Below, one piece after another: positions 10,673 to 34,621 of a stretch of 64,000 bases of DNA (position 1 is its first letter; each line of letters begins with the position of its first letter). Under the pieces are notes generated by a model. It was not told where the DNA came from and did not search any database. It saw nothing but the letters and a program-made list of their open reading frames with translations. Position numbers and translations under genes: made by a program. The stretch lies in contig JBEKGR010000008.1 of NCBI GenBank assembly GCA_050012695.1, positions 11,092 through 75,091 of the forward strand, read 5' to 3'. The stretch comes from Sedimentisphaerales bacterium. GTDB lineage: Bacteria; Planctomycetota; Phycisphaerae; Sedimentisphaerales; Anaerobacaceae.

Positions 10673-10837
10673 ATCTCTATGTGTTGCGGGCAGATATGTG
10701 GCTGGTAGATGCCGTATCCCGCAGCAGGATTATGAAGTTGATACAAAGAATGGTTTTAGGGCTGGGGATACAGATATCTCCTCCTTGAAGGAATCGTAGA
10801 ATTGTTTTTTGGACAATGGATTGAGAAGGAGAAAAAG

Positions 10838-12640: not shown

Positions 12641-12665
12641 TTTTGAATCCTCATTATTAAAGTGT

Positions 12666-13529: not shown

Positions 13530-13532
13530 TGT

Positions 13533-15158
13533 TTAATGACCCGCCAGTTTTTTAAACACCCTTGAACGAAGAACAATTGCCACGGTATTGAGACAGAGAA
13601 TCAGCAGCACCAGTGTAACGACCATTCCGAACTGGTTATGCGGCACCATTGCGGCCAGCTTGTCGCCGACTGCCATATCGTAGCTGCCGTAGGAAAGCGT
13701 TCGTGTCGGGTCAAATATGGACTTAGGCACCGGCCCAAGCGCAACCGCCCCCGTAAACAGGACCGGCGCCGTTTCACCTGCAACCCTGCTCAAGCTCAGT
13801 ATTACGCCCGTGAGAATCCCCGGCAGAGCCGCCGGCAGAGTTACTTTGACAAACGTGCGGAATCTGCTTGCGCCCAAAGCTAATGACGCTTCTTTGTAGG
13901 TCTGGGGCACGGCCCGAATCGCCTCTTCGCTTGCTCGTATCATAACAGGCAACGTCAATACAGCCAGCGTCATCGAGGCAGCCAGGATGCATCCCTTAGA
14001 AGGAGCTCCAAATATCGGCAGGAAAAACAATACGAAAAACGCGAGTCCAAAAAGCCCGAAAACAATACTGGGAACACCCGCGAGGGTATTGATGCTCATC
14101 CTGATAATTCTCATGACAAAATTATCGGATGCACATTCCACCAGGTAGGCAGCGGAAATAACGCCGAAAGGCACGACAAAAAGCATAGCGAGTATGGTTA
14201 ACAAAAGTGTTCCGAGAATTTCGGGGCCGACGCCGCCGAAGTAATGGCCGGGAGTGCTGTCGTCTATGAAATATTGCCAGTAAAAAGTCGGTCTTGGCTT
14301 GAGCATTTCAGGCAGATTCTGCTGAATGTAAGCGAAAAGCCCCTCAATCTCCGTGCCGGCAAACCTTTGCGAACGAGGCGTCAGATGTCTGACCATCGGC
14401 TGTCCCTGTCCCTGCTTAATCCATTCCTCATACCATAACAATCGGCCAAGCAGCTTTTGTGCCAGGTCCCAGCGGGTGGCCCCGAAACGATTCATCATCA
14501 AGGCCGGCGTTGCCGCTCCGGGCGCGGGACCCAGTAGTTCGATTAAAATATCCTCAACCTGTCGAAGCTCCTGATAATACCTTTGGCGTTCGGCAAGATT
14601 AATCCCGTGTATGTCTTTGCTGTATTGTTCGGCAAGCCCAATGAGACCTGCTGCGGAGGTATTCTTAAACCGTGGGTCGTCTTTGAAGTTGAGGACGTAT
14701 GCTAAGGATTCATTCACTTCTGCCGTGTTTGAGCTTGCGAAAGCCGATTCAAGCCGGTCGCGAATCTGCCTTGTAACAGACCTTAACTCAGCGACTTCCT
14801 CTGCGGTTTGGTCTGTTTGCCGGAGGTCGTTTCCGAACTGACGGTAAATTTGTCTTGCTTTCTCTATAAGGTTCCCGGAATCGATGCCGCCTTTGAATTT
14901 TTCGATTGTGCTGTAAATTTTCGCCCGTGCTGTTTCTGCCTGTCTGCTTTCCGCTGCTATCTTGTCCTCATCGCCCCGGCCGAACAGCACTAATTGCATC
15001 TTTCTGAATTCGACTGTTTCCTTGAATACGACCGCCGAACCTCCGCGCCAAAGCATCGGCCCAAGCACCGCCACCAGCACTAAGCACAGGCAAACCACCG
15101 AAGCTCCCGCAACAACGGTGAATATCTTGTCTATCGCAATTCGAACACCTGGTCTCAT
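13533..15158 (-). CDS. pstA: Phosphate ABC transporter permease PstA (long form)
   Basis: The C-terminal permease core carries EASLALGASRFRTFVKVTLPAALPGI. A hydrophilic insert of about 270 aa follows TM1. The start overlaps the pstC stop by 1 nt (TGATG). Confidence 0.85.
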   Translation of the reverse strand: MRPGVRIAIDKIFTVVAGASVVCLCLVLVAVLGPMLWRGGSAVVFKETVEFRKMQLVLFGRGDEDKIAAESRQAETARAKIYSTIEKFKGGIDSGNLIEKARQIYRQFGNDLRQTDQTAEEVAELRSVTRQIRDRLESAFASSNTAEVNESLAYVLNFKDDPRFKNTSAAGLIGLAEQYSKDIHGINLAERQRYYQELRQVEDILIELLGPAPGAATPALMMNRFGATRWDLAQKLLGRLLWYEEWIKQGQGQPMVRHLTPRSQRFAGTEIEGLFAYIQQNLPEMLKPRPTFYWQYFIDDSTPGHYFGGVGPEILGTLLLTILAMLFVVPFGVISAAYLVECASDNFVMRIIRMSINTLAGVPSIVFGLFGLAFFVLFFLPIFGAPSKGCILAASMTLAVLTLPVMIRASEEAIRAVPQTYKEASLALGASRFRTFVKVTLPAALPGILTGVILSLSRVAGETAPVLFTGAVALGPVPKSIFDPTRTLSYGSYDMAVGDKLAAMVPHNQFGMVVTLVLLILCLNTVAIVLRSRVFKKLAGH

Positions 15159-16156
15159 CAGCGTTTCCCGCCCGCCTTTTTGGCTCGTATAAGAAAATAT
15201 TCACTGACCATATTCAGGCACAAAGTTATAACCAGCAGAAGCAATCCCGCTGCAAAAAGCGCCCTGTAATGAGGGGAGCCCTTTTCTGTCTCGCCCATAT
15301 CGCCCGCGATTGTCGCCGTCAGGGTCCGAACCGATTGCGACAAGTCCCACCACGGATGCGGTATCTGTGCAGCGTTTCCCGACGCCATCCACACGACCAT
15401 TGTCTCGCCGATTGCCCTCATCATTCCAAGCACTATCCCGGCGATTATCCCGCTGTGTGCAGCCGGTATAACAACTTTGAAAATGGTCTCCATTCGCGTC
15501 GCGCCACACCCGTATGACGCCTCTCTCAATTCCCTTCCTATCGCTGAAATCGAATCTTCAGAAACACTTATTATCGTAGGTAATGCCATTACCGCCAAAA
15601 CAAGCGACGCGTTAAGGGCGTTGGTGCCCGTAGAAAACCCGAACTTTTGCTGCATCCACGGAGCCAGAACCATCACCGCGAAAAAACCGTAAGCAACCGA
15701 CGGTATCGCCGCGAGAATCTCAATAATCGGCTTTATAATGTTCCTGATTTTCATCGAAACAATGTCGCTCAGGAAAACCGCGGCTAAAATCCCCACCGGT
15801 ACGGCAAATATAATCGAGACAATTGTTACATAGCCAGAACCCACGAGTAACGCGAGTGTCCCGAATTTCGGTGTGACTGCTTCGGGATACCATGAGGTGC
15901 TTGTGAGAAACTCTGTTATGCTGAATTTGGCAAGAAACGGCAGCGCCTCTCTGATTACGAACAGGAAAATCAGGAACACCGCCAAGACAGAGGTGCATGT
16001 AACAAGAAAAAGAGCCATCCGGCCGAGGTGAAGCGTAAGGAAACCCCTGATATCCTCGGTCGGTGTAAGCACCAGCGGCCGATGTGAATCGGCCGCCGGC
16101 GCTAACGTGTCCAGTAAAGTTCCCTGCTTTGCTTTAATCGCTGAACTCTCCAACAA
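15158..16156 (-). CDS. pstC: Phosphate ABC transporter permease PstC
   Basis: 332 aa with 6 TM and the EAA-like loop EASYGCGATRMETIFKVVIPAAHSGI. Confidence 0.85.
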   Translation of the reverse strand: MLESSAIKAKQGTLLDTLAPAADSHRPLVLTPTEDIRGFLTLHLGRMALFLVTCTSVLAVFLIFLFVIREALPFLAKFSITEFLTSTSWYPEAVTPKFGTLALLVGSGYVTIVSIIFAVPVGILAAVFLSDIVSMKIRNIIKPIIEILAAIPSVAYGFFAVMVLAPWMQQKFGFSTGTNALNASLVLAVMALPTIISVSEDSISAIGRELREASYGCGATRMETIFKVVIPAAHSGIIAGIVLGMMRAIGETMVVWMASGNAAQIPHPWWDLSQSVRTLTATIAGDMGETEKGSPHYRALFAAGLLLLVITLCLNMVSEYFLIRAKKAGGKR

Positions 16157-16163
16157 CAGGTAA

Positions 16164-16982
16164 TTAGTAGTTCGTCACAGGAACAAACCCCTTCGCTAAA
16201 ATAATTTCCTGGCCCTTTTCGGTCAGATAGAACGTGCAGAACTTAAAGACCGTTGACCCAAGTTTCGGATAGCCATTTGTGAACATAAACAAAGGTCTTG
16301 CAACGGGGTAAGTACCGTTTGCAATGGTCTGCTTTGTCGGCGCAATTCCGTCGATTTTCAACGCCTTGACCTCGGCATCAACGAAACCAATACCGACGTA
16401 GCTGATTGCACCGGCGGTGGTTTTCACTCTTGCCTGTGCCTGCGGATTTGAGTTGACGTATTCGACGTTTTTGGCCAGCTCTTCCTTGTTCATAACCTTC
16501 TCGTGGAACGTCTCGTATGTTCCCGACGATGTGTCTCTGCTGACAATCACTATTTCCGCATCAGGTCCGCCTATTTCTTTCCAGTTCTTGGTTTTGCCAT
16601 TATAAATATCTCGCACCTGGGCCGTAGTCAGTGCGGCTACCGTGTTCGACGGATGCACGATGATACATACCCCGTCCATCGCAATCGCGTGTGCAACCGG
16701 GAATACGTTGTGGTCAACGGCGCTTTTGAATTCTTTGTCCTTCATAAACCGGCTCAAAGTCGCTATGTCGCACCGGCTGTCAATTAGTGCGGCAGCCCCG
16801 TCGCCACTACCGGTCTTTTTTACGGTAATCTCAAGACCGGGGTTGGTCCTCATAAAATATTCAGCAAAAGCATCTGCAATCGGACCGACAGTTGTCGAAC
16901 CATCGATTTGCAGCGTCTCCGCCCGCACCAGACCTGTGGCTGCGAGCATCAGTAAAGCTAAACTAAATACCAATCTCTTCAT
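16164..16982 (-). CDS. pstS: Phosphate-binding protein PstS
   Basis: Has a signal peptide, GSTTVGPIADAFAEYF and VSRDTSSGTYETF (PBP_like_2). It is the first gene of pstSCAB-phoU. Confidence 0.85.
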   Translation of the reverse strand: MKRLVFSLALLMLAATGLVRAETLQIDGSTTVGPIADAFAEYFMRTNPGLEITVKKTGSGDGAAALIDSRCDIATLSRFMKDKEFKSAVDHNVFPVAHAIAMDGVCIIVHPSNTVAALTTAQVRDIYNGKTKNWKEIGGPDAEIVIVSRDTSSGTYETFHEKVMNKEELAKNVEYVNSNPQAQARVKTTAGAISYVGIGFVDAEVKALKIDGIAPTKQTIANGTYPVARPLFMFTNGYPKLGSTVFKFCTFYLTEKGQEIILAKGFVPVTNY

Positions 16983-17003
16983 TTCGTTGTCTCCTTCTCA
17001 CTT

Positions 17004-17057
17004 AGTTTAAGTGAGCATTGTTAAAATTATGTTAATAATCGGTTAATCTTTCGTTAG
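17004..17057 (-). promoter_or_regulatory. Pho-box promoter of pstSCAB-phoU
   Basis: The minus strand reads CTAACG-N5-TTAACC-N5-TTAACA-N5-TTAACA. Plus-strand GTTAA/GTTAG units sit at 17053, 17042, 17031 and 17020. Nine nt further on is TAAACT (17009..17004). An 8-bp leader hairpin CTCACTTA/TAAGTGAG (16997..17015) follows. Confidence 0.7.
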
Positions 17058-17069
17058 AGCAAATCATCT

Positions 17070-18362
17070 CTAAAACTTGAAAACCAAATCCGCCTGCAGC
17101 CGGCGATATTTATCGTTCGTGGTTATATTTTCATCGATGAAGTAGCTCAGGCCGGTCTGGAAATTCTTCGCTAATTGATAGGTGAAGTTAAACCAGTGTC
17201 CTCTTGCATTTGTGCCGCCGCCGTTGAAATCGGAATCGTTGAATTGGCCTAACACGGCATCGGACTGAACTTCACGATAGTTATAGCCGAGTTGCCAGGA
17301 GCCGGGGTCTTTGGCCTTGTTGAACGTGGTTCCGATAAGCCAGGCATTGTTATGTGAACCGGGCGCATCCGTGTTACGAGCAGCATCGCCATACACTGCG
17401 ACCGGATAATCCGCGATTTTAGTGCCATATTCCGCGAAACCTTCTACGATGTCATAACCGTATTTGTATTTCCCGGCAGAAGCGGTGTTGCCGAAGAAAC
17501 TGTTCTTGCCCCACAGCGAGCTGACGTTGGGTTCATCCTCGATATGCCCGTATGTGTAATAGCCCAGGCCGCCCAGCAGGTAACTTTTATTCTCAAACGT
17601 ATTCTTCAGATAACCCTGTATTGCCCACAGTGATGTAGAAGCCCCAACTGCGGTATCGGGATTATCGGGATGCCCAACCCAGAATCCGCCGCCGTTGATA
17701 TATGCCTTTAGCGAATCGTTAATCGGCATTTCGTATTTGACAGCCAGTCCCTCCGGATTCAAATCGTCATCCCAGATTAACTGGTTGTCGCCAACGCGGT
17801 AGAATGGCTTGTTCATTTTGCCGCCGATGAAGTCAAAACCCTTTATATCTTTAGGATGCCAGTCGAAGTATGCAAGGTCGAGCCATATCGCCTTCTTGCT
17901 GAAAGCATCCCCCTCGGTCTGGTTTGTCGAGACAGGGTCAGCCGAACCTCCGGCTAAACGGAATCCAAGGTCAACCTCGTCATTGACTTTATCGTAAAGT
18001 CCAATTCTCGCGCGAAGCCGATTTCGTTCTACACTGTTGCTGTTGCCCTTGCTCGACCATTTACTTTTGCTCTGTGAATCAATTCCCTCGTAGCGGTATC
18101 TCAAATCGCCGCTGATTTTCATGTTCTCCACCCACTTGATACTGTCCGGCAATTTTGCCTGTTTCTGCTCTACGGCCTTGTTGACCTCCTCGGCGACGAC
18201 CTTCTTCTGCTGCGATTCCATCTGGTCAAGCCTGGCTTGCAAATCAGCGATCTGCTTTTTCATATCGCTGATATCGTCCGCCTTGACGCTGCAGGCGAAA
18301 ACCAAACTTAGCAGCAGACAACCACAAATCATCCTTAATTTATTCATTACTCGTACCTCCAT
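17070..18362 (-). CDS. Outer-membrane porin, probably phosphate-selective (OprO/OprP-like)
   Basis: Has a signal peptide, an N-terminal coiled coil (DISDMKKQIADLQARLDQMESQQKK), beta-strand-rich alternating sequence and the C-terminal LVFKF. It sits between phoR and pstS behind its own Pho box. Confidence 0.6.
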   Translation of the reverse strand: MEVRVMNKLRMICGCLLLSLVFACSVKADDISDMKKQIADLQARLDQMESQQKKVVAEEVNKAVEQKQAKLPDSIKWVENMKISGDLRYRYEGIDSQSKSKWSSKGNSNSVERNRLRARIGLYDKVNDEVDLGFRLAGGSADPVSTNQTEGDAFSKKAIWLDLAYFDWHPKDIKGFDFIGGKMNKPFYRVGDNQLIWDDDLNPEGLAVKYEMPINDSLKAYINGGGFWVGHPDNPDTAVGASTSLWAIQGYLKNTFENKSYLLGGLGYYTYGHIEDEPNVSSLWGKNSFFGNTASAGKYKYGYDIVEGFAEYGTKIADYPVAVYGDAARNTDAPGSHNNAWLIGTTFNKAKDPGSWQLGYNYREVQSDAVLGQFNDSDFNGGGTNARGHWFNFTYQLAKNFQTGLSYFIDENITTNDKYRRLQADLVFKF

Positions 18363-18432
18363 AAAACACTTCTTTATTACCTGAACGCTGACCCGAGACC
18401 ACCCCGGATGGCGATGTACCCGTTGAGGTCGG

Positions 18433-18486
18433 ATTTTACGTGAGTTTCGCTAAAGGCCCGTTAAATTGATGTTAGAATTGCGTTAA
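18433..18486 (-). promoter_or_regulatory. Pho-box promoter of the porin gene
   Basis: The minus strand reads TTAACG-N5-CTAACA-N5-TTAACG-N5-TTAGCG. Plus-strand units sit at 18482, 18471, 18460 and 18449. Nine nt further on is TAAAAT (18438..18433). Confidence 0.65.
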
Positions 18487-18524
18487 TTAAGGGGGTTATT
18501 GGAGTAAGTTGAGAAAATGTTTAT

Positions 18525-20351
18525 CTAAATAGGCAGGTGAATAGTGAAGGTGCTGCCCTGGCCGGGAGAGCTTTCGACAGAAACTGAGCCGCCGTGAAGA
18601 TTGGTGATATGCTTGACGATGGCAAGGCCAAGGCCCGTCCCGCCGAGTTTTCTCGTGCGGGCCTTGTCAACAACGTAGAACCGCTCGAATAAGCGTGAAA
18701 GATGGCTCTCTTCTATGCCGCAGCCCGAATCCTTCACCGCGATTGTCGCTTCCTTGTCGTCTTTTCTGGCGCTTATCTGAATCGTGCTATCGGCAGGACT
18801 ATATTTAATAGCGTTATCAACGAGATTCAAAACCGCCTGCTCGAGCAAAGTCGGGTTTATCAACGCCTCCAAATCGTCATCGCAATCAATCTCGATTTTG
18901 ATTTTCTTATCGCCTGCCTTCGGGCCGGAAAGCTCAATTGCTGATTCCAGCACTGGTCTGACCGTCAAATGTTCCCTCGCAATCATCCTCTTCTGGCCGT
19001 CTTCTTCCAGGCGGGACAAGCTCAGCAAATCTTCTATAATCGCCATCAATCTGTCCGTATGGCCCGCTATAATTTTGAGAAATCGCTGTGCCTGCTCGGG
19101 TTCGTTAATGGCGCCGTCTAAGAGCGTCTCAACGAATCCTTTGATGGAAGTAATCGGCGTTCTCAGCTCGTGCGAAACGTTGGCCACAAAGTCGCGCCTG
19201 ATGTTTTCCAGCCGCTGCATTCTTGTCATATCGCTTAATACGATAACGGCTCCGTTTTTATTGCCCTGATGGTCGGTGAGGTACGTGCCCCTTGCCCGCA
19301 GCGAAACGGGCTGCTCTGCTCCGCCATCGGCGCTGCCGATGGCGAGACCTCGCTCGTCCCTAAGGGACGAGGCGGGCGCCATAACAATATCCTCTTCGGT
19401 TGGCGTAGAGGACATCAGGGTATATCGCATAAATCGCTGGATATCCACGTTCCTGATGACCTCTTCAATACTGTGTCCCGTGGCTGAGACGACATCTATC
19501 TCAAGAAGCATCGCCGCTTTTTTATTGATGCTCACGACTCGTCCGTCCGAATCCACGGCTATCACGCCCTCGGCCATACTGCTTAAAATCGCTTCAAGCT
19601 GATTCTTCTGGTTTGTTATGGTTTCGATTGTTCGCTTCAGGCGGTCAGCGGTTTCGTTAAGCGCACCGGCAAGCTCGGCTAATTCTTCAGAATCCGGCAC
19701 CGGCACCCTGTGGTCCAACTGCCCCGTGGCAAACCGCTTCGCGGCGTCTTTCATTTGTTCGATTGGCTTGGTTATCTTGCGGGATACAACCAAAGTTACG
19801 CCCGCCGCACAAACCGCCGCCCCGATAACGCCCCACGCGATTTTTGCGTAAATATCATTTAGCGCCTTGTCAACAGCGATAACCGAAAGCGACCCGCGAA
19901 CTACAGCTATTGTTTGCTCCTGTTCTTTGAGAGGCACAGCGATATACATCATATTTTTGCCAAGGGTGTCGCTGAATCGCACGCTCCTGCCTGTCCGCCC
20001 GTTCATCGCCTGCCTGAATTCAGGACGGTCCGCGTGATTTTCCATTTTGGCCGGCTGCTGGTCCGAATCACCTACAACCCGGCCGTCAGGCAGTATCATC
20101 GTAAGCCGAATCCCGGCGGTTTGACCAAGCAATTTGCACACTTGGTCAACTTCCTCGAAATTTTTCTGGTTCACAGCGGGTAAAATCTGCTGCCCTGCAA
20201 GCCGGGTCCTCGATTCGAGGTTTTGCGCAATCTCATCGTAATAAAACCAGCGGAACGAATAAGACGCATACCAGCTTAAAAGAACAAGCGATAAGATAGT
20301 AATTATCAGGTAGGGAAGATAAAGCTGCCAAAGCAGCCGCTTCTTTGCCAT
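18525..20351 (-). CDS. phoR: Sensor histidine kinase PhoR
   Basis: 608 aa with 2 TM flanking a periplasmic domain, then HAMP, PAS, HisKA (SHELRTPITSIKGFVETL) and HATPase (GGTGLGLAIVKH). It lies 3 nt downstream of phoB. Confidence 0.85.
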   Translation of the reverse strand: MAKKRLLWQLYLPYLIITILSLVLLSWYASYSFRWFYYDEIAQNLESRTRLAGQQILPAVNQKNFEEVDQVCKLLGQTAGIRLTMILPDGRVVGDSDQQPAKMENHADRPEFRQAMNGRTGRSVRFSDTLGKNMMYIAVPLKEQEQTIAVVRGSLSVIAVDKALNDIYAKIAWGVIGAAVCAAGVTLVVSRKITKPIEQMKDAAKRFATGQLDHRVPVPDSEELAELAGALNETADRLKRTIETITNQKNQLEAILSSMAEGVIAVDSDGRVVSINKKAAMLLEIDVVSATGHSIEEVIRNVDIQRFMRYTLMSSTPTEEDIVMAPASSLRDERGLAIGSADGGAEQPVSLRARGTYLTDHQGNKNGAVIVLSDMTRMQRLENIRRDFVANVSHELRTPITSIKGFVETLLDGAINEPEQAQRFLKIIAGHTDRLMAIIEDLLSLSRLEEDGQKRMIAREHLTVRPVLESAIELSGPKAGDKKIKIEIDCDDDLEALINPTLLEQAVLNLVDNAIKYSPADSTIQISARKDDKEATIAVKDSGCGIEESHLSRLFERFYVVDKARTRKLGGTGLGLAIVKHITNLHGGSVSVESSPGQGSTFTIHLPI

Positions 20352-20354
20352 CCA

Positions 20355-21038
20355 TTAGTCCTTGAAACGATAGCCCACGCCTCTTACGGTCTCAATGTAT
20401 TTTCCGAACTGGCCGAGCTTGCGCCGCAGCGACACAATCTGCACATCCACGGCCCGGTCGGTCACAACATAATTGCTGCCGCGAATCGCGTCAACTATAT
20501 TGTATCTGCTTAGCACCAGTCCTGGTCTCTTCGCAAGCGTGTAAAGAATCATAAACTCCGTAAAGGTCAGTTCAACCGGCTTGTTTTTGAGTTTCACCTC
20601 GTATCGGGCGGGGTCTATTGTTAAATCGTGAATCTTGACGGGCGTATTTTCCTGCTTTGCTGCTGTGGCCCTGTATAGAATCCGCCGAACCCTGGCGATA
20701 AGAACCTTTGGGCTAAACGGCTTTGTTACATAATCATCCGCGCCGACCTCCAAGCCGGAGACAACATCGGACTCCTCACCTTTGGCAGTCAGCATTATTA
20801 TAGGTATTGAGCTGGTTTTCGAATCGGCCTTAAGCTGCCTGCAAACTTCGATGCCGTCTATCCCCGGCAGCATACGGTCAAGCAGTATGGCGCTGGGCGG
20901 GTTGGCCTTCGCCTTTTTCACCGCCTCTTCGCCGGTAACAGCCGTTTCAACTTTGAATCCTTCTTTGTTGAAGTTGTAACGCACCAGTTCCAGCACATCT
21001 TCTTCGTCATCTACAGCGAGTATGCTTCCTCTAACCAC
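20355..21038 (-). CDS. phoB: OmpR-family response regulator PhoB
   Basis: Receiver domain (DDEEDVLELV ... LDRMLPGIDG ... MLTAKG) plus a winged-helix domain (IETVRGVGYRF). Confidence 0.85.
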   Translation of the reverse strand: MVRGSILAVDDEEDVLELVRYNFNKEGFKVETAVTGEEAVKKAKANPPSAILLDRMLPGIDGIEVCRQLKADSKTSSIPIIMLTAKGEESDVVSGLEVGADDYVTKPFSPKVLIARVRRILYRATAAKQENTPVKIHDLTIDPARYEVKLKNKPVELTFTEFMILYTLAKRPGLVLSRYNIVDAIRGSNYVVTDRAVDVQIVSLRRKLGQFGKYIETVRGVGYRFKD

Positions 21039-24992: not shown

Positions 24993-25187
24993 CTAAATGC
25001 CACCCCCTTTCTCAACTAAGCCGCCGTCATCATAACGTCTCTTATGAGTTATCTCAATTTGTGTTATTTTTGAGTTGTGCACCTTTATCGTTACCGTTCC
25101 ATAATCAAGACCTACAATCGCATTCCGAATATCTGTAATGATGGCGTCGTTTGCCGCATTTTCATTACCATTTTTTCTTTCGCTCAT
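24993..25187 (-). CDS. yezD: YezD-family small protein (DUF2292)
   Basis: 64 aa. YGTVTIKVHNSKITQIEITHKRR matches the GsVtI.vqdgkv.qie...K motif. This family is typically linked to sulfur-assimilation genes. Confidence 0.6.
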   Translation of the reverse strand: MSERKNGNENAANDAIITDIRNAIVGLDYGTVTIKVHNSKITQIEITHKRRYDDGGLVEKGGGI

Positions 25188-25238: not shown

Positions 25239-25276
25239 TATGGTAGCAATTATACCATACTCAAGGCCATTGTCAA
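25239..25276 (-). promoter_or_regulatory. Near-consensus sigma-70-type promoter of the yezD-OMP-metY-cysK operon, with an overlapping palindromic operator
   Basis: The minus strand reads TTGACA(25276..25271)-16 nt-TGgTATAAT(-10 at 25254..25249). The inverted repeat TATGGTA(25239..25245)-N7-TACCATA(25253..25259) straddles the -10 and the start site. Confidence 0.6.
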
Positions 25277-25728: not shown

Positions 25729-26127
25729 TCATCGCATTCGTAACAGTTCCGCACCATCAATGGCAAGTTTCTTAACAGAACTGAGTCGTTGTCTGGCTTT
25801 ACTACAGGATGTTTTTATTTCGACTTGCGATTTGCCCTTTTCTCCGACTAACAGCTTGACATTCAAGGCCGCTTTTTTAATCCCCATATCCGCAGTATCC
25901 AATTCAACAGTAGCGGCTGTGGTCATTAAGGTATTAGAATTCTTCTTCGCCCAAGCCAACCCGCTCGCGGTAAGATTCTGCTGGCACGCCTCAAGGTACG
26001 CCCGGTCGGCCTGAAAAATAAATGTATTCGCATCGGAGGCCAAAACAATCATATACATCCCAATCAGTGCGAGGATAGAAATGACAATCAGCATGACAAA
26101 ACCGTTATTTCTCGCTTTGAGATTCAT
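25729..26127 (-). CDS. Minor pseudopilin-like protein (GspK-like N-terminus without Glu+5)
   Basis: ARNNG/FVMLIVISILALIGMYMIV forms a hydrophobic N-terminal helix. It is the last gene of the T2SS-like operon and overlaps the previous gene by 4 nt. Confidence 0.5.
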   Translation of the reverse strand: MNLKARNNGFVMLIVISILALIGMYMIVLASDANTFIFQADRAYLEACQQNLTASGLAWAKKNSNTLMTTAATVELDTADMGIKKAALNVKLLVGEKGKSQVEIKTSCSKARQRLSSVKKLAIDGAELLRMR

Positions 26128-26633
26128 TCAGCCGCTCCCCATAACGCACCTGCAAAAAATAAATTACTATTGGCCATCTTTTTTCTTATCTGACCGAAGT
26201 TTTTGTCCTCGATGCAGGTTCTTACCTCGACCGCATAACCCGCCGTGCCTTTGCTCCATACCTGCCATTCAATCCAGCCGTGAGGGACCAACCAAACCAT
26301 ATCGCCTGCCGTTACGCCTGTTGTGCCTCTGGTAAAACTGCGAAGAATCCGGCCATTACTGAACTTATAAGAAATCACACCATTCGGCATTTTCATCAAC
26401 AGCGTATTAGGTTCGTCAGGGCCATTGACGGATTCCGACAAAGTTTTTGCTGAAACGACATCAGCCCGTATATGACTTACCACATTGTTAAGAGTGATGT
26501 TTTCCTGAATAAGCCGGGAATCCCTCGGCAAATCAAATGCGAATGTCCCCCAAAAACGATCAAAAATCCCACCGACCATTGCCATAACAGCCAGGACTAC
26601 CAATATTTCGACAAGTAAATAACCCTTGCGCAT
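26124..26633 (-). CDS. Pseudopilin-like protein with a prepilin-type N-terminus
   Basis: MRKG/YLLVEILVVLAVMAMVGG has Glu at +5. The start was set to ATG 26633, directly after the upstream stop; the tracked ORF extends to 26729 by overlap. Confidence 0.55.
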   Translation of the reverse strand: MRKGYLLVEILVVLAVMAMVGGIFDRFWGTFAFDLPRDSRLIQENITLNNVVSHIRADVVSAKTLSESVNGPDEPNTLLMKMPNGVISYKFSNGRILRSFTRGTTGVTAGDMVWLVPHGWIEWQVWSKGTAGYAVEVRTCIEDKNFGQIRKKMANSNLFFAGALWGAAE

Positions 26634-26634
26634 C

Positions 26635-27066
26635 TTAATGCTCCTGCAAAACGGGCATATCGCCTGCTTTAATACTGTTGGTCGAAAAATATCTCGATAA
26701 GCGGACTTCAACCTTTTTGTTGCGGACATCGGCTCCGGCTGTCACGCTAATCAAATCCATACCTTTCCACTGGCCGGCCCCCTGCGATTTGTCGATTTTA
26801 ATAACCACGCCCGGCCACAGCCGTTTCAAATCATTGCCATTAATCGCAGCGCCGGTCGCGGCTATACTATCAAGCGTCGCCTGCGCCGCCGACACACAGC
26901 GTTGTTTTGTAAAATGATAATGGTTCAGCCGCCTGAAACCATCAAGCGATATCGCGAAGGCAACCATAATCATTCCAAGAACCGTCAGCGAGACAATCAG
27001 TTCGGTCATCATCAGGCCGCGATATTTGACACGTTTAGTAATCATTTGTTTCCGTCTTTCATACAA
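26635..27066 (-). CDS. Pseudopilin-like protein with a prepilin-type N-terminus
   Basis: KYRG/LMMTELIVSLTVLGMIMVAFAI has Glu at +5. An alternative start is at 27045. Confidence 0.55.
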   Translation of the reverse strand: MYERRKQMITKRVKYRGLMMTELIVSLTVLGMIMVAFAISLDGFRRLNHYHFTKQRCVSAAQATLDSIAATGAAINGNDLKRLWPGVVIKIDKSQGAGQWKGMDLISVTAGADVRNKKVEVRLSRYFSTNSIKAGDMPVLQEH

Positions 27067-28515
27067 TCAGGGTGCAATCGAACGCGCCGTTGCATATATT
27101 ATGGTTACTATCGGAGAAAACATAGCGTAGGCGATGAACCCAACCATCAGCCCAAGGCAAATTGTCTCACAGGGGCCTATTATGAACCTGGCCAACGTGG
27201 CCGCCCGGCTGTAACCCCAGCGATATGATGTTTCAAGCGTTTCGAGAATATCGAGAGTATTTCGATGGTTATGCACGTCTGCAAAGGCCCATGCCATTGC
27301 GCTTCCCATACCGCACTGCCGGGCTGACAGGCCTATATCGTCTCCGCGTTCAACCATTGCCAGCCAGTTTTTAACTTCTCTCCTGAAGCATTCGTTTATA
27401 TCCAGCCGGAGTGCATTGGCTATCGCCTCGTTGACGGTGCAGCCGGCATTAAGCGAAAGCCGAAGCATACCGGCTACCCGCTGCATCGCGCAACACCACG
27501 CATACCACCGTATAAAAGGCAGATGCCACTTTAAAAAATCGCCTATGCGGGAAATCAAATACGGTTTTTCAACTCGACGCGGTCTGGACCTGACGCGAAT
27601 ATAAATAATGCCGCAAACCAATAGCAACAGGCCCGACAGCAGGATAATCAACGACCCGAACCCCTTCGTAAAAAATTCAGCTATTGATATCAAAGCAATT
27701 GTTGCCGCCGGTAATTTGCCTTCGACCATCTCCATGAGGACAGATTGATACTTCGGTATGATAAATGTCATCAGCATTAACACTACAACAAACATCACAA
27801 GCAGCACTAACGGCGGATATAACAAGGGAATGTGCCTGACTTTTTTGCTGGTGTTTGCCTTTAATACCAAATCCTGCTCGAGGGCGCCAATCGCCTGCGG
27901 CACCTGGCCTATTCGCTCGCCGGCAGCCACCATCGACGTGATATAACCGGGACATTTAGGATACCCACGTCTTAAGGATTCGCTCAAAGAGTATCCCTCA
28001 ACAAGCCACTTCTTTATATTTCGAAGTGTGCCTGCTCTTTTCTCATCCTGACCTACAGCAGCCATTTCCAGCGCCATAGGCAGCGGAAGATTCTGCTTCA
28101 TACTCGCACCAATCGTGGTTATTACATAAGAAGACCTGGCCAGTTCTGATGTAGCGAACGCGCCGATTACCGCCCCTATAAACAACTGCACAAAAACCAA
28201 CCCAAATCCTCCCCAGGCGCCAAAAGCAGCAAATGCAGCAATCGTAAACAGAATCAGGACACAGGCCATCAGGACCCTTCTTGCCCAGATTCTGGCCCAT
28301 CCGGAACCCTCCCTGCGAGGACGGAAAGCAATTATCAACAGCGTAACAAAAAAAATGATAGGTGCAGATACATATATCTCCACTTCTTCGAATATAATGC
28401 CTTGAATCCACATAACAACGCTGAACAAAATGCCGGCAACAAATCCCAGACCCGGCTTATAAAAAGCAAGCACTCCAGAGGCGACCAACAATACAATTGC
28501 CAAAGCAACCAGCAT
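27067..28515 (-). CDS. GspF/PilC-family platform protein paralog with an N-terminal extension of about 125 aa and 4 TM
   Basis: Has two T2SSF-like halves (IGASMKQNLPLPMALEMAAVG...SMVAAGERIGQVPQAIGAL and LRLSLNAGCTVNEAIANALRL...). They are preceded by four hydrophobic helices that are absent from the neighbouring canonical GspF. Confidence 0.6.
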   Translation of the reverse strand: MLVALAIVLLVASGVLAFYKPGLGFVAGILFSVVMWIQGIIFEEVEIYVSAPIIFFVTLLIIAFRPRREGSGWARIWARRVLMACVLILFTIAAFAAFGAWGGFGLVFVQLFIGAVIGAFATSELARSSYVITTIGASMKQNLPLPMALEMAAVGQDEKRAGTLRNIKKWLVEGYSLSESLRRGYPKCPGYITSMVAAGERIGQVPQAIGALEQDLVLKANTSKKVRHIPLLYPPLVLLVMFVVVLMLMTFIIPKYQSVLMEMVEGKLPAATIALISIAEFFTKGFGSLIILLSGLLLLVCGIIYIRVRSRPRRVEKPYLISRIGDFLKWHLPFIRWYAWCCAMQRVAGMLRLSLNAGCTVNEAIANALRLDINECFRREVKNWLAMVERGDDIGLSARQCGMGSAMAWAFADVHNHRNTLDILETLETSYRWGYSRAATLARFIIGPCETICLGLMVGFIAYAMFSPIVTIIYATARSIAP

Positions 28516-28523
28516 AAAAATCC

Positions 28524-29729
28524 TTAACCACCAACATTAAGAACTGAAATTATCTTTATCATTGGCAAAAACATCGCCATGACGGACATCATTATAAAAA
28601 CGCCCACAACAATAATCATAACGGGCAGCAGTAATCCCTGCAGGCGAACTTGGGCACTGCGAACCTGCTGGGCATACATATCGCCCAAGCTTCGCATGTT
28701 GTCTTCCAGCTCATTTCGCTGCGAACCCAATTGAATTGAATAAAGGAAGAACCGGGGCATAACCCGGCAGAATTGGCCGGCATCAAGAATACTTACCCCT
28801 TTCTCAATTTGCCCGGCGATAATGTTACCCTCCTTTATCAGTGTTTCACTGCCCGCCGCGTCAGGCGCAAGCCGCAGGCACGTCGGCATATCGCAGCCGG
28901 CTGCAACCATCATTGCCATCGCCTCAGCCATCTTGCTCAATATGGTGCTGTGATACAAAGGCCCGAACGCGGGTATGTGTAAAATTATCGCTTCCCTGAT
29001 TCGCCGTCCTTCCGGGAATGACCGGAGAATAGTATTGATTCCAGCAATCGCGACAACCAGACAGCCAACCACCAGCCAGAAATATAAAATATGATCCGAC
29101 ATAGATAAGGCGAACTGCGTCACCATAGGCAATCCATTCCCTCCCAGCATTTCTATTAAAACATCCCTGAATTTTGGAATCAAAAACACGAGCACAAAAG
29201 TCATAATAATGGAACCCATAACAAAGACAACCGCCGGATAGGCCATCGCCTCGAATACTATCCGTCTTGTCTGGTTGGTAATCTCAATGTGCCTGTTCAA
29301 GCTCGTCAGCATTTCACTGAGCCGGCCCGTCTCTACGCCGGCCTTGAGTATCCGGCCATAGAGCGGCGGGAAATGTTCTTTCCTTTTCTCAAAGGCCCGC
29401 TCAATGCTCATTCCCGTCTCGAGGTCCAAGGCAATCGAATCTATCAGCTTGCGCATCGGCTTCGAGGCCACGTCCTTCGACAACTCTCGCAATCCTTTTT
29501 CGAGTGGGATTCCCGCTTTTGTAAGCGAGGCAAGCTGCTGATTGAAAAGCAAAAACTCGGTCCTGGCAATAGGCGTCTTGGGCCTTTCGGATTTGGCTTT
29601 TTCGAGCGAATTGACTTTGAGCTGCATCTGCTCAAGCAATTCAGATGCTTCCTGCACCGACCCGGCTTCGATAATACCTTTCATCAGCCGGTCGGAAGCC
29701 GTCATCGCACTATATTCAAAAGTCGCCAT
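28524..29729 (-). CDS. gspF: Type II secretion / type IV pilus platform protein GspF/PilC
   Basis: 401 aa with two T2SSF domains (FNQQLASLTKAGIPLEKGLREL...LKAGVETGRLSEML and MAMMVAAGCDMPTCLRL...IQLGSQRNELEDNM) and 3 TM. Confidence 0.8.
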   Translation of the reverse strand: MATFEYSAMTASDRLMKGIIEAGSVQEASELLEQMQLKVNSLEKAKSERPKTPIARTEFLLFNQQLASLTKAGIPLEKGLRELSKDVASKPMRKLIDSIALDLETGMSIERAFEKRKEHFPPLYGRILKAGVETGRLSEMLTSLNRHIEITNQTRRIVFEAMAYPAVVFVMGSIIMTFVLVFLIPKFRDVLIEMLGGNGLPMVTQFALSMSDHILYFWLVVGCLVVAIAGINTILRSFPEGRRIREAIILHIPAFGPLYHSTILSKMAEAMAMMVAAGCDMPTCLRLAPDAAGSETLIKEGNIIAGQIEKGVSILDAGQFCRVMPRFFLYSIQLGSQRNELEDNMRSLGDMYAQQVRSAQVRLQGLLLPVMIIVVGVFIMMSVMAMFLPMIKIISVLNVGG

Positions 29730-29757
29730 CCTGAATCTCCCGTCTTAAATCAACCTG

Positions 29758-30933
29758 TCAAATATCCCCTGCCGAACCGCATACCTTATCCAGCTCATCC
29801 TGTGTGGTCAGGCCATCGGCAACCAGTCGCCTGCCGTCTTCAACCATACCAGTGTGCCCTTTATTAGTCAGGACTTTCTCAATTTCATCAGTATCGGTCC
29901 TGGCGAGAATCGCTTTTCGCAACTGGCTGTCAAGCCGGACAAGCTCGGCAATCAACATCCTGCCTCTAAATCCCGTTCCAAAACAATTATCGCATCCTAC
30001 CGGTTCGTAATTGCCGGCTGTGGTCTGCTTCTTGCATTTGTCGCATAGTCGGCGGATGAGCCGTTGATTCAGAACAGCCGATATGCTTGACGTCACCTGG
30101 TATGGCTCGATACCCATCTCCAGAAGGCGTAGAATCGCCGTCGCGGCTGAGCCGCTGTGCATTGTGCTCATCAGCAGATGCCCCGTAAGGCCGGCTTCAA
30201 TTGCTATCTTCGCTGTTTCAGCATCCCGAATCTCACCTATCATCAGAACTTGGGGGTCCTGGCGAAGGAGTGAACGCAGAGCCGTCGGGAAAGTCATCGG
30301 ACCGAAAGGCGTGATTTGAACCTGGGTAACGCCGTCGAGTCGAATCTCCACAGGGTCTTCCAGAGTGACGATGCTTTTACCCGGAAATTGTTTCTGGATA
30401 TGCCGCAGAACCGCACCTAAGGTAGTGCTTTTGCCGCTGCCCGCCGGTCCGGTTACCAGCAGAACACCCTGATTAGCATAGGTGATTTGCTTCAACGCAG
30501 CATATATCTCTGGTGCGAATCCGAGTTGTCCAAGGTCTGTCAACTCGGAGTTCTGGTAGAAAATTCTTACAACGGCCCTTTGACCGTATATTGTCGGAAA
30601 TACCGAGAGCCGACGGTCAATAATATTTGTATGACCGTTATTGGTTTCCATTCGCCCTTCCTGCGGCACGTCGTTGCGATACGTCAGAAGTCCGCCCAGA
30701 ACCTTCAGGCGAGAAATCACATTGTCCGAAACGGCTTTTGGCAAAGATTCGACCGTGTTCAGCACCCCGTCAAGACGAAATTTTACTATCAGGTCTGAAC
30801 CGGTGGGTTCAAAATGAATGTCGCTGGCGCCTGTATCCACAGCTTTTGTGAGCAGTTCATCCACAAGGACGACAACATCACCCGGTTGTGTTTTTTGCTC
30901 GTAAGATTTGTTCCCATAAGGAGTTAAAGCCAT
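29758..30933 (-). CDS. gspE: GspE/PilB-family secretion ATPase, short form
   Basis: Walker A GPAGSGKST, Asp and His boxes, and the tetracysteine motif CDKCKK...CDNCFGTGFRGR. That motif is typical of GspE/PilB and not of PilT. At 391 aa it lacks the N1E-type N-terminal domain. Confidence 0.8.
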   Translation of the reverse strand: MALTPYGNKSYEQKTQPGDVVVLVDELLTKAVDTGASDIHFEPTGSDLIVKFRLDGVLNTVESLPKAVSDNVISRLKVLGGLLTYRNDVPQEGRMETNNGHTNIIDRRLSVFPTIYGQRAVVRIFYQNSELTDLGQLGFAPEIYAALKQITYANQGVLLVTGPAGSGKSTTLGAVLRHIQKQFPGKSIVTLEDPVEIRLDGVTQVQITPFGPMTFPTALRSLLRQDPQVLMIGEIRDAETAKIAIEAGLTGHLLMSTMHSGSAATAILRLLEMGIEPYQVTSSISAVLNQRLIRRLCDKCKKQTTAGNYEPVGCDNCFGTGFRGRMLIAELVRLDSQLRKAILARTDTDEIEKVLTNKGHTGMVEDGRRLVADGLTTQDELDKVCGSAGDI

Positions 30934-31102
30934 TTCCCGGTACTCCTAACAAACGTATTACCGCTTTTTTCTCCTCCCTCCTGTAGATTCAGACGCGCCG
31001 GCAGGGTCAAATGTTATTCAGAAAAATGAGATTTTTAACCATTTAGCACCGAATCGGTGTTAACATAATGTCAGGCAGCGCGTCTTAATAATCGGAGAAA
31101 TT

Positions 31103-31667: not shown

Positions 31668-32168
31668 ATGTGGGCCTCGAAGGGGAAAAATTACTGCAGA
31701 CAACTTAGAGACCGGGCGCTTCGGCTGATGGCCAACAGTTTCAGTCCTGACCGACACTGGATACAAAATCATATTGCCGACTGCCCGCGTTGCCAGCGAC
31801 GATTGGCGCGTCTCGGCAAGGTTGAGCTTGCAATATCCATGCTAAAATCTCAGCCGCACAATCTCAATCTGCTGATGCGAGCCAATACACAGGCAATAGG
31901 TGTGCTCAAGCACTGCCTGCGAACAACTGCTAAAGCTGAACATCTCCGAAATATCCGCCCGGATATGAGCATTATCGAAAGGTGTGCCAGATATAAAAAT
32001 TCATTCACCAGCGTTGCCGCATGCATAATCATCGCCATTTTGATGAAAAACGGCGCATTTTCTTCAGCAAAAATGTTCGAAAGCAAAGGCCAGAAAGCAG
32101 TTGAGCACTACTACGCCAGCAACGCAGGCGAAGATATCGCCCGCGATATCTTCACAACAAACGCATAA
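31668..32168 (+). CDS. Zinc-finger (ZAS-type) anti-sigma factor, single-pass membrane protein
   Basis: Has the H-x3-C-x2-C motif HIADCPRCQRRL and a TM segment FTSVAACIIIAILM. It lies 4 nt after the sigma-factor gene. Confidence 0.6.
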   Translation: MWASKGKNYCRQLRDRALRLMANSFSPDRHWIQNHIADCPRCQRRLARLGKVELAISMLKSQPHNLNLLMRANTQAIGVLKHCLRTTAKAEHLRNIRPDMSIIERCARYKNSFTSVAACIIIAILMKNGAFSSAKMFESKGQKAVEHYYASNAGEDIARDIFTTNA

Positions 32169-32631: not shown

Positions 32632-33159
32632 ATGGCGCAGCGTGATATTGAGCAGGTAATTATAGGATGCAAGAAAGGCGACGAGGGATGCTTTACGCAA
32701 CTCGTCGATATATATGGCAGGCGATGCTTCGGATATTTCTACCGCTTGACAGGCAACAGAGATTTGAGCGAAGAATTGCTTAGCGAGCTATTTGCAAAGT
32801 TAGTGGAAAAGATAGGCAGTTACCGCGGCGGCAGCTTTGACGGGTGGGTGTTCACAATGGCATCGAACATCTTCCATGACCATTTACGGTTCAAACAGCG
32901 GCAGACGCGACTTCTGGATGAACACAGCAAACGAATAATGTCGCAATCGGCGGGTGTTTCAAGTGGAAAAAATGATGACTTCGACAAGCTGCAAATGGCG
33001 CTGGTGGAATTAGACAGCGACGTGCGGGAACTGATAATGATGAGATTTTACTCGCAGATGTCGTTCAAGGAGATTGCGGAATCAAGACGAGAACCAATCG
33101 GGACGACATTATCAAAGGTGCACCGTGGATTAAAGAAATTACGGGAGTTGATGGGATAA
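32632..33159 (+). CDS. ECF-type sigma factor
   Basis: Region 2 (FTQLVDIYGRRCFGYFYRLTGNRDLSEELLSELF) and region 4 (MSFKEIAESRREPIGTTLSKVHRGLKKL). Confidence 0.75.
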   Translation: MAQRDIEQVIIGCKKGDEGCFTQLVDIYGRRCFGYFYRLTGNRDLSEELLSELFAKLVEKIGSYRGGSFDGWVFTMASNIFHDHLRFKQRQTRLLDEHSKRIMSQSAGVSSGKNDDFDKLQMALVELDSDVRELIMMRFYSQMSFKEIAESRREPIGTTLSKVHRGLKKLRELMG

Positions 33160-33165
33160 CCATAT

Positions 33166-33681
33166 ATGAATAATTCAGTGAATGAAAATTTGAGAGAGTT
33201 GCTGGTCGGCTTCATGGATGAGGCGGCAGCCCGGCAGACGGCTGAGGATATAGAAAAGGGTGAAGAAATTCTGGGGGCGAATCAATCGCCTCAGCCGGAT
33301 GAACGGGTACTCGCCGAGGTGAAGAAAAACGTCGTGGCCGCTCTAAGACAACGGCGGACAGTCGTCTTTCAGAGAAGGATACTGATTGGCGCTGTCGCTG
33401 CGGCAGTTATTCTGATAGCGGTCATTACCCAAATGCATTATGACAACCTGCAGAACAGCCGGCAAACCAGGATAGTCGCAAGGTCGGTATCAATACCGTC
33501 ACAGGTATGGGAAGGCGCGGATGACGCGGATGTTACCGTGCTGAGGGCGGAAATAGAAAATATACAGAGTGAGTTGTCGGGGGCTCAATCTGACTCCATC
33601 AGCACCGGCGGCACAAACTCAGCCGCCGGGGATTTGGAAACAGAATTAATCGAAGTTAACGGCGATATGTGGAAAGGATAA
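33166..33681 (+). CDS. Putative anti-sigma factor (single TM)
   Basis: Assigned by position, immediately after the ECF sigma gene, and by one TM segment (ILIGAVAAAVILIAVITQM). No recognisable motif was found. Confidence 0.4.
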   Translation: MNNSVNENLRELLVGFMDEAAARQTAEDIEKGEEILGANQSPQPDERVLAEVKKNVVAALRQRRTVVFQRRILIGAVAAAVILIAVITQMHYDNLQNSRQTRIVARSVSIPSQVWEGADDADVTVLRAEIENIQSELSGAQSDSISTGGTNSAAGDLETELIEVNGDMWKG

Positions 33682-33685
33682 GGAT

Positions 33686-34621
33686 ATGAGAATAAACTTA
33701 TGGAACGCGATCTTGGTTGCGGTCTGCGTAATGGCAATGACAGGCATAACCCAGACAAAAGCGGGAGATCTCGCACAGGAAGAGCAGATTAGCGCCGCCC
33801 CGCCGGGACCTGATGGACCAATGATGGGAGGTAAAGGGCAACCTGAGCTGACGCCGGCACAGATGGACCACATATTGGCCGAGATAAAGGAGAAGAACCC
33901 TCAAGAGGCCAACGAGCTTACACAGCTAAGGCAAAAAGACCCCAATGCCTTCAGGATTGAGCTGCGAAACCATATGCGAGAGCAGTTTATGTCGCGTATG
34001 CTTGAGCAGAGAGGAACACAGCAAGGCGGACCTGCGGGGCAACAGCATGCAATGCCCGGACTTGGCGCACCGCCTAAGGCCGGGCACGATATGCCCGGAC
34101 CGGAATTTATGCGTGAAAGAATCCAGGAAAGAACCGATGAGTACCTCAAATGCCTCAAGGAAAATTACCCGGACGAAGCAACAAAGCTGGAACAACTCAA
34201 AAAAGACAATCCCGAACAGTATGTCAGAGCGTTAATGATTAGCGGGAAAAAATACGGCAGGATTTGCGATGCGGTCAAAGACGACCCGAATCTTGCAAAA
34301 GTGCTGAAACAGCAAATGGAGCTTAAAGACAAGCGAGCAGAACTGTTGAAACAAATCAGGGCTACGACTGATGAAAAGCAGAAGAAAACGCTGACCACGA
34401 ATTTAGAGCAGATTGTCGGCCAGCAGTTTGACCTGATTGTTAAGCGAAAACAAATGGCGTACGAAGACCTGACCAGGAAACTGGCGGACCTGCAAAAAGA
34501 GGTCAACCAGAGAAAGGCCGAGGTTGAGAAATGGAATGGCAAGGATTTCAAGAGTCAGAAGGTTAAGGAGCGCGTTACCGAGCTTGTCAACCAGCCGGAA
34601 AAGTTCGAGTGGGACAACTGA
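33686..34621 (+). CDS. Secreted helical-repeat protein with a His/Met/Pro-rich segment (Spy/CpxP/ZraP-like role suspected)
   Basis: Has a signal peptide. An internal repeat pairs IKEKNPQEANELTQLRQKDPNAF with LKENYPDEATKLEQLKKDNPEQY. The His/Met-rich stretch is QQHAMPGLGAPPKAGHDMPGPEFM. It is the third gene of the ECF module. Confidence 0.4.
   Translation: MRINLWNAILVAVCVMAMTGITQTKAGDLAQEEQISAAPPGPDGPMMGGKGQPELTPAQMDHILAEIKEKNPQEANELTQLRQKDPNAFRIELRNHMREQFMSRMLEQRGTQQGGPAGQQHAMPGLGAPPKAGHDMPGPEFMRERIQERTDEYLKCLKENYPDEATKLEQLKKDNPEQYVRALMISGKKYGRICDAVKDDPNLAKVLKQQMELKDKRAELLKQIRATTDEKQKKTLTTNLEQIVGQQFDLIVKRKQMAYEDLTRKLADLQKEVNQRKAEVEKWNGKDFKSQKVKERVTELVNQPEKFEWDN

Follow-up and report, generated by a model that had tools for sequence, protein, structure and literature searches.

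A putative sigma factor-controlled type IV filament assembly operon with two dissimilar platform proteins in a peat-bog planctomycete

A six-gene operon beside a divergent sigma factor gene

The DNA analysed here, called the window, is a 64-kb stretch (64,000 nucleotides) of contig JBEKGR010000008.1 from a Sedimentisphaerales bacterium. The host is a peat-bog planctomycete. It has a compact operon, predicted to be under sigma factor control, for the assembly motor of a type IV filament; the operon is composed of six back-to-back open reading frames (ORFs) on the minus strand at positions 25729-30933, in the order E-F-F'-p1-p2-p3. Next to E and divergent from it is a gene for an extracytoplasmic function (ECF) sigma factor, followed by that of a candidate anti-sigma factor. 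Genes and coordinates were taken from the ORF listing of the window, and the starts were refined by gene callers and family alignments. The features are listed below, with an arrow between positions -1 and +1 of the prepilin-like motifs, lengths in amino acids (aa) and transmembrane segments abbreviated TM.

29758-30933, minus strand: E, GspE/PilB-class assembly ATPase, 391 aa, N2 and C-terminal domains only (PF00437, NCBIfam models, orthologue alignment)
28524-29729, minus strand: F, platform protein, 401 aa, T2SSF_N, two T2SSF repeats and three TM segments (Pfam, hydropathy)
27067-28515, minus strand: F', divergent second platform protein, 482 aa, N-terminal extension, two T2SSF repeats and three TM segments (Pfam, hydropathy)
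26635-27045, minus strand: p1, prepilin-like protein, KYRG↓LMMTE, with Glu+5, 136 aa from the ATG at 27045, or 143 aa from a TTG at 27066
26124-26633, minus strand: p2, prepilin-like protein, MRKG↓YLLVE, with Glu+5, 169 aa
25729-26127, minus strand: p3, prepilin-like protein, NG↓FVMLI, without Glu+5, 132 aa
31103-31663, plus strand: ECF sigma factor, 186 aa, divergent from the operon (Sigma70_r2 and r4_2 domains)
31668-32168, plus strand: candidate anti-sigma factor, 166 aa, HxxxCxxC motif (HIADCPRC), a single TM segment (residues 113-134, approximately), short external tail
31061-31085, plus strand: P_ecf, predicted ECF-type promoter of the sigma gene, TAACAT-N14-CGTCT, with the -10 element ending 17 nt before the sigma ATG
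30991-31016, minus strand: P_E, predicted ECF-type promoter of the operon, TAACAT-N15-CGTCT, ending 57 nt upstream of the E start codon

The genes follow one another closely or overlap, with intergenic gaps of 28, 8, 21, 1 and -4 nt from E to p3. A first-pass annotation, made from the sequence alone, had reported six tightly packed genes at this place, and all six ORFs are indeed present on the minus strand with the coordinates that it gave. For p1, the ATG at 27045 is favoured over the TTG at 27066 by the conserved motif KYxG↓(F/L)xxxE. The start of p2 is at 26633 and not at 26729, as indicated by the gene callers and the family alignment.

Predicted control by the linked ECF sigma factor

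The 169-bp intergenic region between E and the sigma gene contains two oppositely oriented copies of the motif TAAC(A/G)T-N13-16-CGTCT, one facing each gene. This arrangement is a classic signature of an ECF sigma factor that regulates itself and a single target operon beside it. The motif has three matches in the window against 0.18 expected, and the third, inside an HlyD-type gene on the opposite strand, is probably due to chance.

The linkage could be followed in relatives by means of a genome scan, which gave 80 species-level loci from Phycisphaerae/Sedimentisphaerales. The ECF sigma gene adjoins E in all 58 loci with enough upstream sequence, and in 54 loci it is followed by a homologue of the anti-sigma candidate (cluster 6). 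The promoter motif points toward E in 48/59 loci and toward the sigma gene in 52/59. The 1.17 Mb covered by the loci contain just 12 further matches, several of which are the same promoter in uncounted loci.

The candidate anti-sigma factor has a sub-threshold match to zf-HC2 at residues 28-43 (E=0.024, 15 bits). Together with the HxxxCxxC motif and a single TM segment in a protein of 166 aa, this match suggests a zinc-binding anti-sigma factor. Thus, the sigma factor domains, the HxxxCxxC motif with its TM segment and the shared promoter motif are all found at this locus, as expected for a pair of this kind. Neither the pair nor its two promoters had been noticed in the first-pass annotation.

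A further set of three genes lies directly beyond the first sigma/anti-sigma pair, on the plus strand at window positions 32632-34621. It starts with a second ECF sigma gene (175 aa), after which come the genes of an anti-sigma-like protein with a single TM segment (171 aa) and of a 311-aa signal-peptide protein rich in charged, coiled-coil-like sequence.

Conservation of the operon in Phycisphaerae

The order E-F-F'-p1-p2-p3 is kept in all sufficiently long loci of the set, and F and F' are adjacent wherever the sequence permits this to be checked. A word-indexed search with F' gave 841 homologues at E<=1e-5; the best 120 of these are nearly all of about 470-495 aa, down to 45% identity, and the few with an organism name come from Sedimentisphaerales, Phycisphaerae or Planctomycetota metagenome-assembled genomes. 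Among the genome loci, F' keeps its full length down to identities of about 40%. In an exhaustive profile search F' was represented by 333 50%-identity clusters at E<=1e-30, as opposed to 21,479 T2SSF proteins at E<=1e-3, and judged from these counts F' is a small, distinct subfamily. It is not a pseudogene: degeneration of F' in relatives, which had been foreseen as a way in which the first description could fail, was not observed, as the protein is full length and conserved.

Relatives whose F' is at most 49% identical often have a larger operon. Between E and F, 34/65 loci encode one or two exported TPR-like paralogues, sometimes with a Peptidase_MA-like lipoprotein, and a PilT scoring above the curated cut-off is encoded directly after p3 in 20/62. 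All three kinds of gene are absent from the clade of the window. Since it is the distant relatives that carry these extra genes, the clade of the window has a trimmed version of the operon, and the label "minimal" given to it at first is suitable for this clade but not for the distant relatives. Examples of the inserts are those at L017:4427-8707, L046:5001-8728 and L050:6719-8768, where the TPR-like proteins have about 340 aa and the Peptidase_MA-like lipoproteins 520-1073 aa.

Two very divergent members keep the E-F-F' trio. In one of them, L085, whose contig measures 5.9 Mb, the genes for sigma and anti-sigma factor are linked to the operon but co-directional with E. The other has no pilin genes at all, and PilT is also absent. 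In L085 an IS110-family transposase gene (L085:12724-13737) separates p2 from the operon's last small gene.

A subset of relatives (clusters 8 and 11, 13-16 loci) has another conserved group of three genes beside the system, upstream of the ECF pair and on the opposite strand. They encode a 620-645 aa GspE/PilB ATPase with an MshEN domain, of the c-di-GMP-binding type, a GrpE-like protein and an Hsp70-like protein, and occur in L022, L028, L032, L046, L047, L049, L050, L052, L054, L064, L074 and L080.

A short assembly ATPase

The placement of E, F and F' is based on hidden Markov model scores and pairwise scores, judged by the curated equivalog cut-offs of NCBIfam. E, which is the sole T2SSE ATPase within the window, matches PF00437 with E=3.7e-107. 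Its best NCBIfam models are GspE (TIGR02533, 401 bits against a cut-off of 630) and PilB (369 bits against 675). These alignments begin about 100-170 positions into the models, at position 104 in the case of GspE, which indicates that E has no N1E domain; indeed, the room upstream in 64 orthologues is at most 49 residues, too short for such a domain. All 64 orthologues share, without any change, the tetracysteine zinc motif (C297/C300/C314/C317) as well as the Walker A, Asp, Walker B and His boxes. The original description of a 391-aa ATPase with the tetracysteine motif and without N1E is thus borne out.

E is about 40% identical both to E. coli GspE and to a long MshEN-type ATPase of the same phylum, and its closest solved structures are Thermus PilF, in first place, and Vibrio EpsE. 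When E was compared with plasmids by tblastn, only GspE- or PilQ-type ATPases at 26-42% identity were recovered, and no closer system. A fifth cysteine, Cys385 (window 29779-29781), is located near the C-terminus, outside the tetracysteine motif, and is also invariant in 64/64 orthologues.

Two full-length platform proteins without the channel glutamate

F has the three TM segments of canonical platforms in its hydropathy profile. In F' the T2SSF repeats begin at residue 133, and T2SSF_N is replaced by a polytopic N-terminal extension of about 125 aa. The first-pass annotation had recognized this extension and had counted four TM segments in it, whereas hydropathy gives about five hydrophobic segments. 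The two proteins are only 20% identical (37 bits). Compared with E. coli GspF, HofC and a canonical planctomycete paralogue, F is about equally far from each (91-98 bits), and F' is more distant still (37-50 bits). Against the T2SS GspF model (TIGR02120, cut-off 424) F reaches 214 bits and F' 87 bits.

In PulF, the channel was described as lined by Tyr168 of TM segment 1 (TMS1) and Glu370 of TMS3, each beside an invariant Pro; these polar residues were reported to be highly conserved across GspF/PilC proteins, and the cytoplasmic N-domain to be peripheral and dispensable (PMC10790770). This N-domain is the part that F' swaps for a membrane domain. In our alignment both Tyr-Pro and Glu-Pro are present in E. 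coli GspF, HofC and the canonical planctomycete paralogue. The TMS1 Tyr-Pro is also found in F (73/73 sequences) and in F' (79/79, with the Pro in 76/79). However, the TMS3 Glu is replaced in both, by Leu in 70/73 F sequences and by Trp (52) or Gly (20) in the 79 F' sequences, the window copy having Gly-Pro and most relatives Trp-Pro. Neither protein, then, has the complete core of GspF/PilC platforms. F had been called a canonical 401-aa GspF; its length is as stated, but "canonical" is an overstatement, given its score and the missing glutamate.

With two platforms so different, it must be considered whether they are partners. F and F' could instead be alternative platforms for two substrate sets or two ATPases, or F' could be a non-catalytic regulatory or anchoring subunit. 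Their low identity, the membrane domain that F' has instead of the N-domain and the occurrence of two ATPases (E and PilT) in one operon in some relatives would fit such a separation. However, F and F' are adjacent wherever this is checkable, the E-F-F' trio is retained even where pilins and PilT are not, and F' retains both T2SSF repeats and, in its core helices, the Tyr-Pro pair and the Pro. We consider it very unlikely that the two proteins are not partners in one complex.

Three small pilin-like proteins

The G-1 and E+5 residues are kept in the families of both p1 (KYxG↓(F/L)xxxE) and p2 (MRKG↓(F/Y)(S/T)L(V/I)E). In the p3 family the motif is G↓F(V/A)(L/M), position +5 is hydrophobic, and the absence of Glu+5 is conserved family-wide. 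The window copies of the three proteins hardly register in Pfam or NCBIfam. In a family-wide scan, models of the prepilin N-terminus (TIGR02532, N_methyl) were matched by 29-34 of 74 members, the best at about 1e-6. ComGE was matched weakly by 38 members and ComGF by 25 (best E=3.7e-7), in both cases far below the cut-offs, and there were other weak matches to E. coli Ppd proteins and GspH.

The alignments of p1-p3 to E. coli GspG-K and PpdD obtained with hhalign are restricted to the N-terminal helix, including those of p2 to PpdD (93% probability) and GspJ (87%). Likewise, the profiles of p1, p2 and p3 gave only weak matches to PDB sequences, in the N-terminal helix. Because the matches end at the helix, the three proteins are pilin-like but cannot be assigned to GspI/J/K, PilV/W/X or ComGD-G.

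Two AlphaFold2 models, made from alignments, have predicted local distance difference test scores of 79 and 81. The proteins modelled are p2 and p3, and both start with an N-terminal helix of about 60 residues, followed by eight strands in p2 and by a four-stranded sheet in p3. A long helix and then a beta-sheet is the general layout of pilins, and as far as these models go p2 and p3 conform to it.

The proposal of three pseudopilins stood as regards Glu+5, present in two of them and conserved as absent in the third, but "GspK-like" for p3 was based only on this absence. Foldseek, the family-wide scan and hhalign gave no similarity between p3 and GspK, whose model was matched by only 2/74 family members, and this assignment is not supported.

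Relation to known filament and secretion systems

The generic class of the type IV filament (T4F) superfamily is defined by a co-located ATPase, inner-membrane platform and pilin (Denise et al. 2019, PMC6668835). The locus has a T2SSE ATPase, T2SSF platforms and at least one prepilin-type protein side by side. Since the equivalog cut-offs for type II secretion (T2SS), the type IVa pilus (T4aP), Com and Tad are all missed, the system would fall into this class. The first-pass annotation had proposed that its reading would fail if the cluster grouped within a characterised subclass with the missing parts encoded nearby; no curated cut-off is reached, and the parts are not nearby in 80 genomes.

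The highest scores are those of the T2SS (Gsp/Pul/Eps), whose GspE and GspF models are the best-scoring curated ones for E, F and F'. The operon could be a true T2SS for which the secretin, GspC/L/M, GspG and the peptidase are encoded at other places of the genome, while the tip of the pseudopilus is made of the three pilin-like proteins. The identity of E to E. coli GspE is consistent with this idea, as are its tetracysteine motif, the three small genes in I-J-K position, the last without Glu+5, and the sizes of p1 and p2, about those of GspI and GspJ. Moreover, a role in secretion can be argued from the GspE/GspF-leaning scores together with the exported (lipo)proteins, TPR-like and Peptidase_MA-like, that relatives encode between E and F and that could be cargo or pilotins. 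However, the scores are far below every T2SS cut-off, and GspD, GspC/L/M and GspG are absent from the window and from the neighbourhood in 80 loci. The N1E domain, which E lacks, is the one by which GspE binds GspL. The second full-length platform, the loss of the TMS3 glutamate, the dissimilarity of p3 to GspK and the PilT gene straight after p3 in some relatives, unexpected for a T2SS, also separate the two. Thus, we regard a true T2SS as unlikely.

A second alternative is a retractile pilus, Com- or T4aP-like, for uptake of DNA or polymers or for adhesion, with a major pilin recruited from scattered GFTLVELL-type prepilin genes. The Com pilus of monoderms (ComGA-ComGG) also has a short ATPase without N1 followed by a platform and small pilins, has no alignment subcomplex and has its peptidase encoded elsewhere; from this comG-like layout a minimal uptake pilus can be argued, and from the PilT of relatives a dynamic pilus. 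The weak ComGE and ComGF matches and the first place of Thermus PilF among solved structures point in the same direction. On the other hand, the host is a diderm, there are two platforms and ECF control, and three pilin-like genes, none an obvious major pilin, stand in place of five. ComGA (228 bits against 300) and ComGB (104 against 240) are missed and also score below GspE and GspF, the ComGE and ComGF matches are far below cut-off, and the similarity to E. coli pilins does not pass the N-terminal helix. For T4aP, PilC reaches 165 bits against 700, with PilB also short of its cut-off, and the window has no PilT, PilM/N/O/P/Q or ComEA/EC. The two prepilin-like genes of the window are not preceded by the ECF promoter motif (see below). 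A retractile pilus of this type is in our view improbable.

Two tandem non-identical platform genes have been described only for the Tad/Flp system (type IVc pilus), as TadB and TadC (PMC10191384, PMC6668835). TadB and TadC are half-size products of gene fission with one repeat each, whereas F and F' are full length with two T2SSF stretches each; the ATPase is of the GspE/PilB class, with only 42 bits against 373 for TadA, and Flp-type pilins and a TadV peptidase are absent here. The contrast with Tad drawn in the first description therefore holds.

Within the phylum, the essential locus Plim_0401-0410 of Planctopirus limnophila contains, by annotation, E, PilT, E, one F and six hypothetical proteins (PMC10632474). 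Both loci are planctomycete T2S/T4P-like operons that combine a conserved ATPase and platform with small, planctomycete-specific unknown proteins. Compared by annotation only, they differ in composition, and no second platform was reported for the P. limnophila locus, which is the nearest published planctomycete analogue. We found no description of the E-F-F' architecture, its ECF control or the loss of the channel glutamate in the literature searched.

The archaeal bindosome assembly system (BasEF and BasABC) is composed of an ATPase, a platform and three small pilin-like proteins, has no major pilin and is thought to handle many binding proteins that bear pilin signals. The operon resembles it in this set of components and in having no major pilin. 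However, that system is archaeal, and E scores just 20 bits with the BasE model. One can still imagine that the operon is the bindosome's bacterial counterpart and neither a classical pilus nor a classical secretion system: an obligate hetero-oligomeric E-F-F' motor without the channel glutamate, in which the N-domain of F' replaces the GspL/M or PilMNO scaffold and which, on an envelope signal, processes or displays the expanded prepilin-type (DUF1559-like) proteins of planctomycetes. This idea is a speculative one, with the chances well against it.

Prepilin-type genes elsewhere in the window

Pfam scans covered essentially all window ORFs of at least 150 aa and found no secretin, peptidase A24, GspC/L/M or PilMNOP, in agreement with what had first been noted. 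Within 10 kb of the operon no canonical major pilin recurs in the 80 loci, the only recurrent canonical motif being that of p2 itself.

Two prepilin-type genes lie far from the operon, at 5974-7095 and 10802-11848 on the plus strand. They encode proteins of about 350-373 aa with GFTLVELLVVIAIIALL N-termini, which match N_methyl, with significant domain scores, and the GspG N-terminus. They share identical GFTLVELLVVIAIIALLMGILLPSL N-termini and a C-terminal H...DG-like motif, and flank the gene of an 870-aa dockerin-domain protein. The first-pass annotation had taken both for DUF1559 proteins and plausible major-subunit substrates. The DUF1559 label could not be sustained: against PF07596 (SBP_bac_10) one reaches 13.2 bits (E=0.093; cut-off 23.3) and the other has no match. 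Moreover, the ECF motif was not found upstream of either, so that the window offers no evidence of co-regulation with the operon.

A model for the assembly module

We consider it probable that the operon encodes the inner-membrane assembly module of a type IV filament, specific to Phycisphaerae-type Planctomycetota and controlled by its own ECF regulator. An envelope signal would release the sigma factor from its membrane-bound zinc anti-sigma factor, and the freed sigma factor would act at P_ecf, so that its own gene is transcribed, and at P_E, so that the six genes of the operon are. Given that E has neither N1E nor a GspL or PilM partner, the short hexameric ATPase may dock directly on the cytoplasmic domains of the platform. 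F and F' would together make up the platform, most likely a hetero-oligomer, with the polytopic N-domain of F' in the place of the dispensable cytoplasmic N-domain of canonical platforms. ATP-driven movements would then raise the prepilin-like subunits from the membrane; p3, a candidate filament cap, would come first, and behind it the two proteins with Glu+5, p1 and p2, would form either a priming complex or the short fibre. The product would be a pilus at the surface or a pseudopilus in the periplasm. The prepilin peptidase and any major subunit, outer-membrane channel or retraction ATPase would be supplied in trans from genes elsewhere.

Several points weigh against this proposal. A major pilin, a peptidase or a secretin is encoded beside the operon in none of the 80 loci, and for this reason the filament itself is deduced. 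Foldseek searches of the p2 and p3 models against the PDB gave no pilin match (best E 0.05 and 0.11), and no terminator was detected after p3. As the TMS3 glutamate is gone from both platforms, the mechanism may differ from the canonical one. Moreover, a heteromer of F and F' is only one of several possible arrangements, and the system is known from sequences and predicted models alone.

The way in which the platform couples ATPase motion to filament growth is the least understood step in T4F systems, and its stoichiometry, dimer or trimer, and its proposed role as an ion channel are debated. The operon is a natural test of platform models, as it contains two co-conserved, very different full-length platforms, neither with the "universal" channel glutamate. 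The membrane domain added to one of them and an ATPase without N1 and without scaffold proteins increase its value for this purpose. The ECF sigma factor and its promoter motif define a predictable regulon, which can be searched genome-wide for filament subunits or cargo. The host group is uncultured but abundant in peat and sediment, and the system may bear on the abundance of prepilin-like proteins in Planctomycetota.

Other genes of the window

Just past the operon is a separate transcription unit formed by a 64-aa DUF2292 ORF (24993-25187, minus strand) and a DUF3034 gene. A perfect sigma-70 consensus (TTGACA-16-TATAAT with a TG extension) is located upstream of both, at 25249-25276 on the minus strand. 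The DUF3034 protein was considered as an outer-membrane partner and rejected, as its gene is conserved beside the operon in no related locus; the same is true of the DUF2292 ORF.

A phosphate-uptake block occupies 11975-21038 on the minus strand, with PhoU, PstB, two Pst permeases, a PstS-like binding protein and a Porin_5 porin; after it come the genes of a response regulator of PhoB type and of a Cache/HAMP/PAS histidine kinase. A DprA gene is present at 57293-58438 (minus strand), 26 kb from the operon, with no linkage to it seen in relatives. Finally, the region 46494-50870 on the plus strand encodes a 1458-aa fusion of two BcrAD_BadFG activator ATPase domains, DUF2229 and an HGD-D dehydratase-like domain.

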